A stretch of DNA of 64,000 nt from an uncultured Candidatus Peribacteria bacterium (GTDB taxonomy: Bacteria; Patescibacteriota; Gracilibacteria; BD1-5; JAGOOR01). The translations under genes and the position numbers were made by a program. The stretch is taken from the NCBI GenBank assembly GCA_964521495.1, contig CAZFTF010000004.1, forward strand, positions 15,889-79,888, in the 5' to 3' direction. Below are positions 1,263 through 34,804 of this stretch, one piece after another. The notes beneath the pieces are model-generated. The model made no database searches and was not told where the DNA came from. It saw only the letters and a program-made list of their open reading frames with translations. Each line of letters opens with the position of its first letter. Position 1 is the first letter of the stretch.

Positions 1263-1330
1263 GATATAAATATGTAAATTTATACTTGAATAAGTATGTT
1301 ATTTTCATGAATATCCGTATACTTTCCTCC

Positions 1331-1747
1331 ATGGAAATCAAACTCTTCGCCGCTACAAAAGCGTTTATCGTGTATCAGGGTAAAGTATTGCTCCTGCGAG
1401 AGTCTTCAAAATATATTGATGGCTCTAATGCGGGGAGCTATGATGTGGTCGGTGGACGCGTGACCCCTGGAGAGCGATTTGATGAGAGCTTACTTCGTGA
1501 GATATGAGAGGAAACAGGTTTATCAGTCAGGATAGGTCGCCCCTTTTTTGTGAATGAATGGCGACCGGTTGTGAGAGGGGAACAGTGGCAGGTAATTGGG
1601 ACATTTTTTGAGTGCTTTGCTGATTCTGATTCAGTAGCATTGAGTGGTGACCATTCGGAGTATATCTGGATTGATCCAGCGGATTTTCGAGAGTATCCGA
1701 TTATTCCCAATCTTGTAGCAGCATTTGAGAGTTATTTATCCCGGTAA
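1331..1747 (+). CDS. NUDIX hydrolase
   Basis: Track ORFs 1286..1507 and 1550..1747 share one frame, joined by TGA 1505-1507. That TGA sits inside the Nudix box GGRVTPGERFDESLLREI[G]EETGL. Start set at ATG 1331; ATG 1307 or TTG 1286 are possible. Confidence 0.85.
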
Positions 1748-11396: not shown

Positions 11397-14369
11397 CTAT
11401 TTTATTACAATATTAAGAATCTTATTCGGAATAAAAATCTCTTTGAGAATGGTTGCTCCCTCGAGCCATTTTGCAATTTCTGGTTTTGATTCTATGGTTG
11501 TGCGGACTTCATCTACAGCGACACCTCGCATAAATGGATAGGTGCCTCGGAGTTTTCCATTGATTTGCACAGCAATCATGACCTCATCATCGATCGTGAG
11601 TGCTTCGATGTATTCTGGCCATTCAGTCTCGTATATACTACTGTCTTCATTGCCCATGAGTGACCAGCATTCTTCTGCCATATGAGGAGCAAAAGGATGG
11701 AGGAGTCGAGCAAGAGCTGATTTCCATTCTGTGCGAGTTTCAGCATCAGCTGGAGCTCATTCATTCATCATCACGTTGAGCATTGAGATAGCGGTATTAA
11801 ATTTCATATTCTCGATATCTTCCCCGATTTTTTTGATAGCCTTGTGCATCGTCTTCACGGCTTTCAGATTATCACTTGCCAGAAATGTTTTAAATTCATC
11901 ACTGGCTTCATCGGCTGTAAAGAGTCGATGAATTTTCTCCAGCAATCGATAGTTTCCGATAATGGCCTTGGTATTCCAAGGGGACACATCAGAGAAATCC
12001 GCCATACTCATCTCATACATTCGGAGCGTATCAGCACCATATTCATCGATGACTTCATCAGGATTGATAACATTTCATTTTGATTTACTCATTTTCTCTC
12101 CATCTGGCCCGAGAATCAGACCCACATTTCGGAGTTTAAAGAATGGTTCATCACTCGGCACAACACCGATATCAAAGAGGAACTTATGCCAAAATCGTGC
12201 GTAGAGAAGATGCAGAACAGCATGTTCTGCGCCACCGATATAGCTATCAGCTTCTCACCAATATTTCACAACAGCAGGATCCACGATGGCTTCATTATTC
12301 TTCGGATCCATATACCGCAGATAGTACCAGCAAGAACCAGCCCACTGAGGCATGGTATTGGTTTCTCGTTTTCCGACGAGATTGTTCCCAAGTCGTACAT
12401 TTACCCAATCAGGTATCGTCGCAAGAGGGGATTGTCCATCACCTGATGGTTCGTATTTTTCGACTTCTGGGAGCTTCAATGGAAGCGTATAATCTGGGAG
12501 AATCCATGAGTCGATTCATTGGTAGAGTTTACCGAGTATGGTATCTCATTTTTTGAGTACTTCTCCATCTACCCAGCATTCAGTATTGTGAGTTGTTGGG
12601 AGAGATTTCTTGTCTTCTTCTGAGATATGTATCAGGGGAATTGGCTCTCCCCAGTATCGCTGACGAGAGAAAATCCAGTCTCGGAGTTTGTAGTTGGTTA
12701 CTTTCTTTCCGAAACCTTCTTGTTCTGCCTTTTCAGTGAGCTTGATTCTTCCCTCAGCGGATGAAATCCAGTCGTAGTCATCAGAATTGACGAGGACACC
12801 ATCCTCAGTGAAGGCCTTTTCTTCAAGGAACTGATTCCACATATAAATACATGAATCAATATTGATGAATTTAGACACTTCTGAACTTTGAATCCATACA
12901 GGGGCATGTTTTCGTAATTCTTCTGTGCCTACCTCTACTTGTGCTTCATCAATAAGTTCAAATAATCACACCTCAACATGACCAACACGATTTACATCTT
13001 TTGGTCCTGTGAAATGATATGTTTTCTCTTTTCAGAGAGATCGAATAAAACGAATATTTGAATATCCAGTTTCTTCTAGAATCTCTCTTTTTCACGCTAC
13101 TTCTAAGCTTTCTCCCTCCGTTCCCCCAGACACGAAACCTTTCCAACTTGTTTGTTTCCAGTCAAGACATAAATATTTATCTTCAGTATGATGCTTGAGG
13201 ACAGCTAGAAGCAAATCTCTTGGTTCATCTTTTTTATCTTTTCGAGGAGCATAGTCACCGGTAGTATCGGTAAAAAATGGTCAAACACTCTGTTTGATTT
13301 TGAGTCCATATTTTTTCGCGAAATCCCAATCTCGTTCATCATGAGCTGGTACCGCCATCACAGCCCCCGTTCCATAATTTCCGAGAACATAATCTGCTAT
13401 CCATACAGGAACTTTTTCGCCATTGTAAGGATTTACAACATACGATCCCGTGAAGACACCAGTTTTTTCTTTCTTTTCATTGGTACGATCTTGGTCGGAT
13501 TCAGACTTTGTTTTTTCGATGTATTTTAGGCACTCTTTTTCATGTTCTGGCGTGATAAATTGTGCAACAGTTGGGTGATCAGGCGCCACGACAACATAGG
13601 TCATACCATAGACAGTATCGATACGAGTTGTGAAAACTTCCACATTAGGACAATCAATTCATTTGAGACTAAATTGGCATCCCTCACTTCTTCCTATCCA
13701 ATTTCTCTGCATTTCCTTGATACCTTCTGGCCAGTCGAGTCGGTCAATATCTGAGAGGAGTCGGTCAGCATATTTTGTGATAGCGAGGACCCACTGACGA
13801 ATGGGCCTTTTCTCCACAGGTGTTCCACAGCGTTCACATTTTCCATCGACGACTTCTTCATTGGCGAGTCCCGTTTTACAGCTCGGACAGAAATTAATTG
13901 GCTTATCACTTTCATACGCAAGTCCAGCCTCAAAGAGCTTCAAGAAAATCCATTGAGACCATTTGTAGTATTCTGGATCCGTCGTATCGACCTCACGATT
14001 CCAGTCAAAAGAAAAACCAAATCTCTGAAGCTGTTCACGAAAACGATTGATATTATTGGCTGTTGTGACTGCTGGATGTGTACCGGTCTTTATCGCATAG
14101 TTCTCAGCTGGGAGACCAAATGCATCCCACCCCATCGGATGGAGAACATGAAACCCTTTTGCATGTTTGTAACGCGCGATGATATCTGTTGCTGTGTAGC
14201 CCTTTGGATGACCGACATGAAGTCCTGCGCCGCTGGGATAGGGGAACATATCGAGCGCATAAAACTTGGGTTTATGACTATTTTCGAGTTCGGGATTGAG
14301 ACATTCAAAAGTGTCGTGTTCTGCCCAGTATTTCTGCCACTTTGGTTCGATGGATTGATGAGGATACAT
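11397..14369 (-). CDS. leuS: Leucine--tRNA ligase carrying an internal NUDIX-fold insertion
   Basis: Six track ORFs (11397..11681, 11757..12020, 12255..12479, 12546..12878, 13281..13643, 13659..14396) share one frame, joined only by TGA. Motifs: HVGHPKGY (HIGH), [17 protein letters not shown], and the CP1 motif [15 protein letters not shown]. Start set at ATG 14367-14369 ([15 protein letters not shown]). Total 990 codons. Confidence 0.92.
12804..13283 (-). other. NUDIX-fold domain inserted in frame within the LeuRS CP1/editing region
   Basis: About 160 in-frame codons lie between [10 protein letters not shown] and GVLVNS. They read ...[51 protein letters not shown]...VGHVEVGLFELID...VWIQSSEV. 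The Nudix box is at 13062..13127. No TAA or TAG occurs. Confidence 0.65.
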
Positions 14370-15701: not shown

Positions 15702-16392
15702 CAGTGATATACTTCATCTTTTTTGATGATTGGGCATGTATCATGGGGAGGAATTCTACATTGGAGACATAGAGCAGTGAACCGCCGGCAAAGGCAGTGA
15801 GGAGACTGACAACGAAAATATTTTGAGACGGGACAAGTATGCTTGAGAGGAGATATCAGAGGGGAGCTGCAAGAGCAAATGCGAGCACGAGAAGAATCTG
15901 TTTTTTACGCTGAAAATGTGATTGTCTCAAAAGAGACACCAGAGAAAGCGAGACGGGGATTTGGTGGACAGCAACTCATGCGAGTACAGTGATACCAAGT
16001 TCAGCGCTCATGTTCATTCCAGCCCGTATCCCGACCCCATCAAAGATAGTGTGGAGGAAGATGGCAATCCAAGAAACGATAATTACATGGTCCAAGTGTT
16101 CATGTGGGTCTTCGTGGGTATGGTCACCATGTTTATGATCGTGGTGATGCGGTGTGAGGAGTTCTTCTATCAGATAAATAACCAAAAACCCAGCAATAAA
16201 AGTATAGATAGCAAGAGGGTTGCTCTCGATGGATTCAGGGAGGATATGGACGAGCGAGACTGAGAGCATAGTACCCCCTCAGAGCGCGACGAGGAGATGG
16301 AGAATCTTCTCTGGGATATCCTTCCAGATGTGCAGAATAAGCCCAATACTCGATATCAGAAAAAGGCCAATAAGAATGAGAATTGGAGACAT
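15646..16392 (-). CDS. ZIP family metal (Zn/Fe) transporter
   Basis: ATG 16390-16392 to TAG 15646-15648; track ORF 15976..16269 is the middle part. It has a His-rich loop (HHHDHKHGDHTHEDPHEH) and ZIP motifs HTIFDGVGIRAG and AVHQIPVSLSL. Confidence 0.8.
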
Positions 16393-18920: not shown

Positions 18921-20654
18921 TTAGTATATTAACTTCCTATAGCATTCCTCACAAACAACCCTCTCAGGTCTGTCTGGAGAATAAGTTGTAATAATTTCTT
19001 TCTGGCATTCTGCGCAAGTCCTCTCATAGAGTTTTCTCGGATTTCGCAAATCCATCCTCTCCTTATGTCTATGATCCGGATGTTTCGTAGGAATAGGGAT
19101 TCCGTTTTCAATATAGAAGACCAGTTCTTGTTTGATGATTTTGAATGGTTTTTTTGTTATCTCACATTGGATGATTCATCATAAAACCTCGTTGATATTT
19201 TCTGTGGCGGTTTCGTAACCAACAATTCTTTCGTCATATTGAGAGATGGATAGAGGAACATAGTGACTTCCAATATATGTATTCTTATTTTCCCCATCAT
19301 ACCATTTCCATCACTGTGCTTTTACTTCTTTCTCGGTCATAGGGAAATATTCATTCGCCACTGTTTCATTGTATGCAAAGGGGCTTAGGTCATGTGAGAA
19401 AAATTCTCACCACTCACCTGTACTCCGCATATGATCAATAATCTTTCAGCAAAGTGTTTCATAATCTTTGACAGAGTATGGAGTGTTGAGAATAGTGTGA
19501 AATCATTTTTTGAGAGAAGCACATCCAAAGCAGTTTTGCAGACCATGACAATCCATAGAATAGAAAACATCTGCTATATTATTGGCACAACTGAAAGAGA
19601 AACAAACATTATGTGCCGCTCATCCTACGAGTTGGTTTTCATAACAAAACTCCGCAGGGAGTCACCATCCATAGTTGTCATAGCAATTTTGAGCCTTGTG
19701 AAACCAGGTATTGTATTTACTGTTTTCTAGATAAGTGCAATCAAAATTGTGAAATGAATTTTTGGAAAAATGCACATAGTCACCCGTAACTGATTCATTA
19801 CCGAGTCATTTCATAAATTTCTTTGGCATTTTTTGGCAGAGATTTCGATACAGTGCGAGTGCCTGTTCTTTTTTTATTTCATCGGTCATAATATCGCGAT
19901 ACTGCTCACGAGAAAATTGATTATTCAAAACACAATACTGTTTATTCACGAGCCCAGAACAACAAAAACAATCCTTACAACTTTGGCAGTCCTGGGAGTG
20001 TTGGATATCATGGCAATCAACGCACGATTCACAAAAGTATGTCTGAAAGCAGTTTTTGCAATCCACACAACTATAACAATTTTCGAGATCAAAAACGAAG
20101 CAGGAGTCCATGACTCACTTACTTCGCTGCATATAGGTATCATAATAACAATCTTCGTTATCGTTACATGCTGCTATGAGATAGCAGTTTTTGTTATTGG
20201 CGGAGAGATGGGAATATTCTGAATTTTCATTTTTGGACTGATGGTAGAGATTCATTTTCGGAGCTTCGGTATATAAGGCTTTAAATTGATCAAAAAATGG
20301 TCTCTCAAAATCAAAGCTTCTTCCATAATCCATAGGTGACCAATCATCACCCCACCAAACCTTTTGATCATAAACAACATAAGGCTTCTCCGGAGAATAA
20401 ATCGAAATAATTTCTTGTCCTGTTTTATCACATTTTCTCTTGTAGAGCTTTCTTTCATTTCTAAAACACAGTCTTCTCTTTTGTCTCTCATTTGGGCACA
20501 GTGTCGGACTTGGAATTGCATATTTCTTTCCTCCAAATACTGGAGAAATCTTATCATAAAATTCAAGGTCTTTATCTGTTACAAAAAAATCCTGTCCGCT
20601 CAAGCGACATTTCTTTTTTTCAATGATTTTTTCTCCTGGAGGTATGAATGACAT
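18921..20654 (-). CDS. Cysteine-rich zinc-ribbon repeat protein, paralog A (577 aa)
   Basis: Track ORFs 20115..20654 and 19806..20111 plus about 300 further codons share one frame, joined only by TGA. ATG 20652-20654 to TAA 18921-18923. It has related N- and C-terminal modules (..RNERKLYKRKCDKTGQEIISIYSP.. and ..RNPRKLYERTCAECQKEIITTYSP..) and a central run of CxxC-type repeats. Confidence 0.7.
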
Positions 20655-20665
20655 AAAGATAGGGA

Positions 20666-22399
20666 TTAATAAACAAGTTTATGATAACATTTCTCACAAA
20701 CAACTTTTTCAGGTTTATCGGGAGAATAAGTGGTAAGGATGTTATCTTTACATTCAGAACAAGTGCGCTCAAAAAATTTCCTTGGATTTCTTAAATCCAT
20801 TCGTTCTTTATGTCTCTGATCTGGATGTTTCGTGGGAATAGGGATTCAGTTCTCAATATAGAATACTAATTCCTGCTTAATGATCTTGAATGGCTTCTTG
20901 GTTACCGCACATTCGATAATTCAACCCAAAACCTCATTGATATTTTTTGTAGCGGTTTCGTATCCGACTATTTTTTCATTATATTGAGCAATAGGTAGGG
21001 GAGCATAATGATTTCAGATATAGGTATTCTTGCTTTCTCCATCATACCATTTCCACCCTCTCGAAATTACTTCTGTTTCTGTCATAGGAAAGTATTCCTG
21101 AGCCACCGTTTCGTTGTACCCAAAATGTGCTATTCCATGAGGAAAGTATTCTCCCCATTCCCCCGTACTTCGCATATGGTCTATGATTTTTCCACAAAGA
21201 GTCTCATACTCTTGGGTAGAATAGGAGGTATTCATAACACAATGATGTGCCCTTTTGAGACTTGTACATCCAAAAATATTATCAGAATCCTGACATCCAT
21301 ATGCGTATATACCACCAGAACCATTCCAATAATAGAACGTAAACAGTCATCGAGTGACATCCACCGTGGAGCCAACTTCATAACAATATTCTATTCCTCC
21401 AGGAGCCGTATAGACTGCATCCATGCACTCTATTCCTTTTGGTGTAGAGTAGATATATTTAGAGTTTTCGAGTTTCTGGGAATCAAAACAAAAAAATGAA
21501 TTTTTACCATTTTCTATCTGATCACCGACACATCATTCGCAATTAATCTGTTGAGATGGTTTGACGGGGTAAGAGGATTTAAGTGTATCAAAGGACCTGA
21601 AGAGGGGGAGTCACATGGTATTTTTTGCATTTTCCAGTGTTTTCTCATAGGATTCACGGCTTACAGGTTTGTTGTAGACATGGTACTCCTTATTTTTTAA
21701 TCCAAAACAACCAATGCAGTGTGTGCAGTTTTCGCATCGCTCAATTCATAGACAATCGCGACAATTGATACTGTCTTTCGCATAGTAACATGTATAGCAT
21801 CGAGTGAGGTTGACTCATTGGTATACGTTTTCGCATTCAAAACAAAATGTTGCATCCATGACGTCACGACAGTCACGTATGAAATTATCATAATAACATG
21901 ATTCAGATTTTGTTGTTCCGACACAAAGATAGCAGTCCTTTGCAACAAGTGTGTGATTGGTATAGTCGCAATTTTCGCATTGTTTGGTAAAGAGATTAAG
22001 TCGAGGTGTTGCCTGCATGAGCTCACTAAATTGTGGGAAAAATGGTCTCTCAAAATCAAAACTTCTACCATAGTTCATCGGAGACCAATCGTCACCCCAC
22101 CACACTTTTTGGTCATATACTACATATGGTTTATCTGGAGAGTAAATTGAGATAATTTCTTTCCCTGATAAGTCACATTTTCTCTTATAGAGTTTTCTTT
22201 CATTACGAAAACACAGTCGTCTCTTTTGTCTCTCATCGGGGCAGAGTGTCGGACTGGGTATTGAATATTTTTTTCCTCAAAATATCGGAGAAATCTTATC
22301 GTAAAACTCCATATCTTTATCTGTCACAAAAAACTCTTGTCCGCTGATGCGACAGATTTTCTTTTCAGAGATGTTTTCTCAGGGGGGTATAAATGTCAT
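20666..22399 (-). CDS. Cysteine-rich zinc-ribbon repeat protein, paralog B (577 aa)
   Basis: ATG 22397-22399 to TAA 20666-20668, in frame with track ORFs 21014..21235 and 21815..22105. The termini are near-identical to paralog A (MTFIPPGENISEKK..., ...CEKCYHKLVY). It lies 11 nt upstream of paralog A. Confidence 0.7.
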
Positions 22400-34718: not shown

Positions 34719-34804
34719 TGGTGCCGCGAGAGAGACTCGAACTCTCACACCCGCAAAGGCAATGGATTTTGAGTCCATCGTGTCTACCATTCCACCATCG
34801 CGGC
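34719..34804 (-). tRNA. tRNA-Leu (anticodon CAA), type II with a long variable arm and encoded CCA
   Basis: The minus strand reads GCCGCGA-TG-GTGGAATGGTAGACAC-G-ATGGA-CTCAAAA-TCCAT-TGCCTTTGCGGGTGT-GAGAG-TTCGAGT-CTCTC-TCGCGGC-A-CCA. Acceptor, anticodon and T stems all pair. Confidence 0.9.

Follow-up and report, generated by a model that had tools for sequence, protein, structure and literature searches.

The window analysed here is a 64-kb stretch of DNA (64,000 nucleotides; forward-strand positions 15,889 to 79,888 of contig CAZFTF010000004.1, assembly GCA_964521495.1) from an uncultured Candidatus Peribacteria bacterium. Its minus strand carries leuS, the gene for a bacterial-type leucyl-tRNA synthetase (LeuRS), which is read under genetic code 25 with TGA specifying glycine. 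An earlier interpretation made from the letters alone (the sequence-only reading) had proposed that a NUDIX domain is inserted in the CP1 editing domain of this enzyme. Our analysis makes the anatomy nearly certain: a complete Nudix-fold domain is nested in CP1 of a bona fide bacterial-type LeuRS. The protein is nested at three levels, Nudix within CP1 and CP1 within the Rossmann fold.

The leuS gene and its nested Nudix module

The leuS frame contains ten in-frame TGA codons and no TAA or TAG, and is terminated by a TAG. The TGA codons coincide with conserved glycines, for example the one in KMSKSK-G-N. The protein scores 969.1 bits against the leuS_bact profile TIGR00396, whose cut-off is 548.4, and is thereby identified as a bacterial LeuRS. 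A public protein, P0287, is identical to it except for tryptophan at the ten TGA positions. The features of the gene are listed in Table 1. The sole tRNA gene found in the window encodes a tRNA-Leu with anticodon CAA (34719-34804, minus strand). A tRNA-Gly(UCA), which would support code 25 directly, was not found within the 64 kb.

Table 1. Features of leuS and of the module nested in it (window coordinates)
Feature	Position	Strand	Residues and remarks
leuS, bacterial-type leucyl-tRNA synthetase	11397..14369	minus	990 codons under code 25, 10 TGA = Gly
HVGH (HIGH) class I signature	14208..14219	minus	51-54
CP1, N-terminal part	13284..13706	minus	222-362; Pfam PF13603 on residues 222-364, profile positions 1-142 of 185
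T-rich motif TTRIDT	13614-13631	minus	247-252, in CP1
Editing Asp motif AHDERD	13329-13346	minus	342-347, in CP1
Nested Nudix module	12801..13283	minus	363-523, in place of a CP1 loop of about 20 residues
Nudix domain envelope	12819-13271	minus	367-517 (family hidden Markov model)
Nudix box	13062..13127	minus	415-436; catalytic E420, R428, E429, E432, E433
CP1, C-terminal part, GVLVNS ... C-terminal helix ... YKLRDW	12675..12800	minus	524-565, back into the catalytic core
KMSKS catalytic loop	12081..12095	minus	759-763, followed by TGA-encoded Gly765

The module lies between two conserved parts of CP1. The upstream motif stretch, residues 342-362, terminates at 13284. On the downstream side, GVLVNS is encoded at 12783-12800, and the LeuRS profile match resumes after the insert at about profile position 371. 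In alignment with the window protein, relatives without the insert resume at the same (A/C)FT(D/E)(D/E)G-hLVNS motif. The closest of these relatives are 848 residues long; their loop of 21 residues, VPTEEASRSSVLDFETCFTDE, corresponds to about 160 residues in the window enzyme. These results bear out most of what the sequence-only reading had said about the gene. It had described a single 990-codon frame free of TAA and TAG, with TGA codons at 13281, 13092, 13032 and 12966, and the code 25 translation agrees. The upstream boundary at 13284 was placed correctly, and the extra length is real. The start of the downstream block had been put at 12803; it is at 12800, one codon away.

The insert was recognized as a Nudix domain by profile and by fold, as had been predicted. 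Taken alone, it matches the Pfam NUDIX family (PF00293) with 33.7 bits (E 4e-8), and within the full protein with 29.7 bits; the gathering cut-off is 21.1. Structures were predicted with AlphaFold2 for an ortholog, P0003, which is 89% identical to the window protein overall and 72% identical in the insert. The full-length model (mean predicted local distance difference test score, pLDDT, 87.3) superposes on the E. coli LeuRS structures 4AQ7 and 5ON2 with a TMt of 0.80. The model of the insert alone has a pLDDT of 92.7 and a predicted TM score of 0.86. Foldseek found 404 matches to it in the PDB at E<=1e-3, and all 50 matches listed are Nudix proteins. The best fold neighbours are a MutT/NTPase, M. 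smegmatis MutT1, an Aquifex hydrolase of diadenosine tetraphosphate (Ap4A), BdRppH and NudI, with TM scores of 0.55-0.69 at 13-20% identity, and E. coli RppH is also among the neighbours. Those that act on Ap4A or resemble such enzymes, Aquifex 3I7U (TMq 0.67-0.69), human NUDT2 (4IJX) and Rv2985, match no better than MutT-type enzymes. A profile search of PDB sequences returned the same Nudix classes.

The catalytic half of the Nudix box reads E420-x7-R428-E429-I-L-E432-E433-T-G-Y436 and conforms to E-x7-R-E-U-x-E-E-x-G-U. Gly426 within it is encoded by the TGA at 13092-13094. The sequence-only reading had located the box correctly, although the 18 residues it quoted cover 13062-13115 only. 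The REx2EE motif is intact, in line with the apparently catalytic box it had described; the start of the box departs from the canonical G-x5-E and is G-x4-E.

Distribution, conservation and turnover of the module

A survey of other genomes for the same insertion, which had been suggested as a check, found it well beyond Gracilibacteria. Insert positions were assigned by a mapping anchored on fixed LeuRS motifs, and 59 of the 137 related LeuRS examined have a Nudix domain nested in CP1. Among the relatives, the distance between PAHDxRD and YKLRDW falls into two classes, 214-224 residues (with one outlier of 236) and 69-133 residues. A full-protein search revealed dozens of LeuRS clusters that match PF00293, including those of Ca. 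Absconditicoccus praedator and Ca. Vampirococcus lugosii. In addition, two short contigs from unrelated sequencing runs span CP1, Nudix and CP1 without interruption in code 25.

The interrupted enzyme is also found in genomes that use the standard code. A scan of species-representative genomes, which is a sample that passes over code-25 genomes and so gives at least the lineages named, found it in Saccharibacteria, Paceibacterota, Taylorbacteria (in an open reading frame, ORF, of 1735 residues) and other Patescibacteria. It was also present in metagenome-assembled genomes (MAGs) labelled Clostridium, Bacilli, Bacillales, Mycoplasmatota and Muribaculaceae, and in two labelled archaeal. Since LeuRS proteins of standard-code genomes carry the same interruption, the architecture is independent of code 25. 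The nested Nudix is widespread in the candidate phyla radiation (CPR) and in reduced-genome, Firmicutes-like MAGs, gut Bacilli and Clostridia among them, and is no peculiarity of Gracilibacteria or of code 25. Because dozens of independent assemblies share the architecture, an assembly artefact is excluded.

The module appears to be an active enzyme under purifying selection. E429, E432 and E433 are invariant in 27/28-sequence alignments, in which the inserts are only 20-35% identical, and [RK]Ex2EE is intact in 58 of the 59 CP1-nested copies. Canonical G-x5-E is found in 50 of the 59 relatives, and the G-x4-E form is shared by the window, P0003, L001 and L002. Comparison of the window with two related contigs gave a ratio of nonsynonymous to synonymous substitution rates (dN/dS) of 0.06-0.12 for the insert, with synonymous sites close to saturation, similar to the 0.05-0.13 of the flanking LeuRS codons. 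Both editing motifs are kept in all 59 Nudix-bearing LeuRS, and so editing has not been replaced by the insert. Same-family copies at other LeuRS sites are more variable, with REx2EE intact in 22 of 33 and degenerate (GQ…AEIxEETGY) in the remaining 11. Readings of the nested Nudix as a pseudogene or as inactive filler were considered and rejected.

A second Nudix copy with a degenerate, pseudo-enzyme-like box, mostly located upstream of CP1, was observed in P0059, P0067, P0070, P0078, P0083, P0088, P0098, P0110, L004 and L006. The CP1 copy of the same proteins is canonical.

The history of the insert is decoupled from that of its host. Nudix-bearing and Nudix-free enzymes are intermixed to the tips of the LeuRS core tree. 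Core identity and insert identity are nearly uncorrelated (Spearman 0.16 over 1711 pairs), and cores that are 94-96% identical carry inserts that are merely 19-28% identical. P0009 and P0010 share 94% identity in the core and 19% in the insert; the values are 96% and 26% for P0007 and P0010, and 93% and 30% for P0005 and the window. P0022 has a core 95.6% identical to that of P0010 and no insert. P0083 and L003 are 42% identical in the core and 73% in the insert.

The exchange can be seen at the level of DNA. Four syntenic loci (AA_kinase, DUF5684, leuS, TP_methylase and further genes) are about 90-100% identical over leuS and its neighbours, with the exception of a patch of about 480 nt. This patch is 31-58% identical among three Nudix variants and is missing from the fourth locus. 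At both of its boundaries, similarity decays over about 40-60 nt within conserved leuS codons. We found no element-like ends around the insert and only short repeats, probably due to chance. The GC content at third codon positions (GC3) is 0.237 in the window insert and 0.390 in the rest of leuS. This places the insert among the lowest 2.4% of 160-codon windows in the genome fragment, with the dip at codons ~360-480. The simplest reading would be repeated gain, loss and replacement through homologous recombination between leuS alleles, a mechanism that we infer from these comparisons. It follows from such turnover that the Nudix module is dispensable for LeuRS function. What surprises most about the system is that a cassette within an essential gene is exchanged at the strain level.

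An exact direct repeat of 11 nt, ATCCATACAGG, is present at 12892-12902 and 13399-13409. Both copies are translated as PVWI, one in CP1 (KVPVWIADY) and the other in the Nudix domain (APVWIQSS). With a chance expectation of about 0.14 such repeats in the stretch, this one is probably a coincidence.

Free-standing relatives and other inserts in LeuRS

An exhaustive profile search for the Nudix family, which is common in CPR/Patescibacteria, yielded 758 cluster representatives at E<=1e-10. LeuRS-linked sequences account for 106 of the best 150 of these 758. Free-standing members are 157-190 residues long and are named 'NUDIX hydrolase' or 'MutT' by their sources; many are from Parcubacteria, Paceibacterota and Staskawiczbacteria. 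Six free-standing homologs have no consistent partner in their gene neighbourhoods, and leuS is never adjacent. Their neighbours vary and include nucleotide-salvage genes, a HAD hydrolase, Sua5 with def and fmt, and, in a Bacilli MAG, queA with rnc and RNase J. In the 643-residue class II protein P0184 (JGI 'prolyl-tRNA synthetase', ProRS), a Nudix domain of the same family separates the anticodon-binding domain from the C-terminal one. At least two unrelated synthetases thus serve as hosts to the family. Further members are a fusion of a Ser-hydrolase with Nudix (P0192) and tandem Nudix proteins.

CP1 and Nudix also occur together without a synthetase. Stand-alone proteins of about 280 residues (P0214, P0217, P0226, P0264 and L010:3680-4543, plus strand, in a Clostridia MAG) consist of a reduced CP1 that carries a Nudix domain in the corresponding loop. 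These mini-CP1 proteins have lost the editing residues (AHIEED, AHNQED, MHNKVD) and retain an intact Nudix box.

Other sites in LeuRS of the relatives also accept domains. Further Nudix copies are found before CP1 and after the RDW motif, giving up to three Nudix stretches in one protein. Ser-hydrolase, GNAT, Ham1, HAD and PDDEXK_3 domains occur at recurrent sites, and the proteins reach 1558 residues. Ser_hydrolase (PF06821) is either N-terminal or, like GNAT, Ham1/ITPase and PDDEXK_3, located where CP1 begins. HAD is located after the RDW motif, downstream of the CP1 Nudix (P0078), and Ham1 also at the C-terminus. LeuRS with extra domains include P0004, P0034, P0037, P0044, P0048, P0056, P0064, P0070, P0071, P0072 and P0078, among others. 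In L002, a contig from SRR26424693, the segment after PLIHI is much longer than in the window. It corresponds to a variable site, near profile position 467, where other lineages carry Nudix or HAD domains.

Two further observations concern the window outside leuS. An ORF at 1307-1747 (plus strand) encodes a free-standing 146-residue Nudix protein with weak similarity (23 bits) to the LeuRS-insert family, and the genome fragment therefore encodes at least two Nudix enzymes. Two adjacent ORFs of 577 residues each, at 18921-20654 and 20666-22399 (both minus strand), have near-identical N-termini, MSFIPPGEKIIEKKKCRLSGQDFFVTDKDLEFYDKISP and MTFIPPGENISEKKICRISGQEFFVTDKDMEFYDKISP, and constitute a tandem gene duplication.

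Function of the module and comparison with known systems

We see about an even chance that the module is a catalytically competent nested accessory, exchanged by recombination, that probably hydrolyzes small nucleoside polyphosphates with LeuRS as its carrier. This reading builds on the observed domain identity, fold, conserved catalytic residues, purifying selection, distribution and cassette turnover. The module would be an accessory outside the synthetase mechanism, as close relatives do without it. It would be gained, lost and replaced by homologous recombination, with the conserved flanking leuS codons as anchors. The leading candidate substrates would be Ap4A-type dinucleoside polyphosphates, which are by-products of synthetases, followed by non-canonical nucleoside triphosphates. 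As a carrier, LeuRS would be constitutively expressed and would also keep the hydrolase close to a source of such compounds; a benefit from this proximity would be optional. Ap4A in cells comes mainly from aminoacyl-tRNA synthetases and is broken down by Nudix enzymes (PMC10148737). As for charge, the inserts are acidic (median net charge -6; window copy -8). A small-nucleotide pyrophosphohydrolase is favoured because of these acidic inserts, the mixed gene contexts, the absence of a subfamily match and the production of Ap4A by synthetases; this substrate class and any benefit of proximity are what we infer as most likely. Any coupling between Nudix and LeuRS is at best facultative, since the module is dispensable, is swapped between near-identical strains and has free-standing homologs that are not beside leuS.

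Several points weigh against the accessory-hydrolase reading. None of the curated Nudix subfamilies is matched, with the best NCBIfam scores at 15-40 bits against cut-offs of 95-259. The MutT 8-oxo-dGTPase models (TIGR00586 / PRK10776) do not match the window insert and give relatives at most 21.6 bits against 98-148, and PHROGs returned generic Nudix similarity and nothing more. The window box starts with GGTEGE, a one-residue deletion relative to the canonical form. The structural models rest on P0003, with tryptophan at the TGA sites, rather than on the window sequence. A plain housekeeping enzyme would not usually show cassette turnover at the strain level. Finally, the mini-CP1 proteins with a dead editing site hint at a closer partnership between CP1 and Nudix than that with a passive carrier.

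These mini-CP1 proteins, with their CP1 scaffold and Nudix box retained and their editing residues lost, also fit an RppH-like function, which we consider unlikely. The module would then be an RNA-end pyrophosphohydrolase or decapping enzyme acting on the 5' end of tRNA(Leu) or another RNA (ppp-, NAD- or Np4A-capped), with CP1 delivering the acceptor end. Among NCBIfam models, those of RppH give the best matches to the window insert and to every family member tested, but with scores far under the cut-offs (<=40 bits against 116-259); with the PRK00714 models of RppH/NudH, the window insert scores 12.5-17.5 bits against 116-241 and family members at most 40. The fold neighbours include BdRppH and E. 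coli RppH, whereas the acidic inserts are unlike an RNA-binding surface. One free-standing member lies between queA and rnc/RNase J and another beside Sua5, def and fmt; however, the gene contexts as a whole are heterogeneous, and the same Nudix family is hosted by a ProRS, where CP1 is absent. Genomes that are 90-100% identical across the locus have either an empty site or one of three unrelated Nudix alleles, which would fit another reading, a conflict module. The CP1 loop would be a recombination-driven variable socket for interchangeable detoxifying or counter-defence enzymes that guard LeuRS from nucleotide-mimic inhibitors, phage or the host. The decoupled core and insert histories, the foreign composition of the insert and the other hydrolase and transferase domains at recurrent hotspots of the relatives' LeuRS are consistent with this. 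GNAT and hydrolase enzymes are a known route of immunity to aminoacyl-adenylate mimics such as microcin C, and agrocin 84 targets LeuRS (PDB 3ZGZ). We nevertheless rate it slightly below the RNA-end reading. The window insert matches no family of PADLOC-DB defence profiles, and its relatives show weak, generic similarity (18-24 bits) to PDC-S07. No cognate toxin is known. The dN/dS of about 0.1 within a cassette type indicates ordinary purifying rather than diversifying selection, and frequent homologous recombination in competent CPR bacteria could equally shuffle neutral alleles. The broadest form of the idea is just as doubtful: the CP1 loop and a few other LeuRS sites would be a hypervariable socket at which genome-reduced episymbionts swap cassettes (Nudix variants, Ser-hydrolase, GNAT, Ham1, HAD) as target-tethered immunity, with CP1 plus Nudix also serving as a stand-alone unit. 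If true, an immunity function would be built into an essential translation enzyme and would protect the synthetase or its tRNA from nucleotide-mimic toxins, phage or the host.

The deviating G-x4-E box of the window clade could alternatively indicate that the insert is catalytically inert, a structural spacer or a nucleotide-sensing regulatory domain for CP1 movement. The motif-to-motif length is near-constant at 214-224 residues, which suggests packing constraints, and clear degeneration is seen in some of the Nudix copies located elsewhere in LeuRS. This is quite improbable in our view, as REx2EE is retained in 58 of 59 CP1 copies across less than 30% identity, the free-standing family keeps the same catalytic residues, and close relatives dispense with the module. 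An artefact, or a selfish element such as an intein-like or other mobile insertion that is excised before the protein acts, has almost no probability left. Sporadic presence at a fixed site of an essential gene does resemble the distribution of inteins. However, the frame is continuous and no terminal repeats flank the insert. An intein was rejected, as there is no Hint, intein or homing-endonuclease Pfam match and the junctions, QSV|GPFF and TED|GVLVNS, lack splice residues. A chimeric assembly or mis-joined contig, which the sequence-only reading had named as a risk, is effectively refuted by the same junctions in independent assemblies from different samples and sources.

The arrangement is of interest beyond this locus. 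Few enzymes are as strongly conserved as aminoacyl-tRNA synthetases; here a second, apparently active enzyme sits inside CP1 and is polymorphic at the strain level within a nearly identical gene. This is a natural system for asking what accessory domains add to synthetases. It may be a testbed for any physical coupling of Ap4A clearance, RNA-end chemistry or inhibitor detoxification to aminoacylation, and a model for the movement of in-frame domain cassettes within essential genes. There are also consequences for annotation, as LeuRS and Nudix records are mistranslated (tryptophan for glycine) and misnamed. Many public copies, including P0003 and P0287, are translated with tryptophan at TGA (table 4 instead of 25). 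The 1167-residue LeuRS P0004 is recorded as 'alpha/beta fold hydrolase', and the 157-residue free-standing Nudix proteins P0298/P0300 as 'leuS'.

The sequence-only reading knew of no described LeuRS with such an insert. This holds for the literature, in that no paper describing a Nudix domain in LeuRS or CP1 was found among open-access papers and bioRxiv, with the qualification that such proteins are already present in databases without a name for the architecture (P0287, for example). As its parts are known and the proteins are already in public databases unnamed, we regard it as a so far undescribed variant of familiar kinds and not as a system of a new kind. In a survey of domain insertions from 2026, the LeuRS editing domain is listed solely as an insert and in zero instances as a host (PMC13114784).

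The synthetase itself is conventional. The LeuRS structures of E. coli (4AQ7, 4ARC, 5ON2), T. thermophilus (2BTE) and N. gonorrhoeae (7NU3) have the same domain order, HIGH and KMSKS signatures, T-rich motif and AHDxRD. The full-length P0003 model matches known LeuRS structures with TMt of 0.76-0.83 at 30-34% identity. In known LeuRS a CP1 loop of about 20 residues follows the editing Asp helix, whereas the window enzyme has an enzyme domain of about 160 residues there. That domain shares the alpha/beta/alpha fold and the REx2EE helix with small Nudix enzymes such as 2AZW (E. faecalis MutT/nudix), 5GG8 (M. smegmatis MutT1), 3I7U (Aquifex Ap4A hydrolase), 3EES (Bdellovibrio RppH) and 6DT3 (NudI). 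It differs from them in being nested within another domain, in an additional lead-in strand at its N-terminus and in conserved K, H and W residues specific to the family. Free-standing CPR Nudix proteins (P0176, P0153, P0314) are closer, 30-47% identical to the insert family, with the same length, conserved positions and lead-in segment; they are independent genes with heterogeneous neighbours, none adjoining leuS.

A precedent for joining a class Ia synthetase to an unrelated small-molecule enzyme domain is NCBIfam NF040702, an isoleucyl-tRNA synthetase with an N-acetyltransferase domain. There the synthetase and the domain are both different, whereas the window Nudix is nested in CP1 and shows cassette turnover. 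Inteins, like the window insert, occur sporadically at a fixed site of an essential gene and leave precise empty sites in close relatives. Unlike inteins, the window insert is apparently retained in the mature protein, judging by its sequence, and would move by ordinary homologous recombination.

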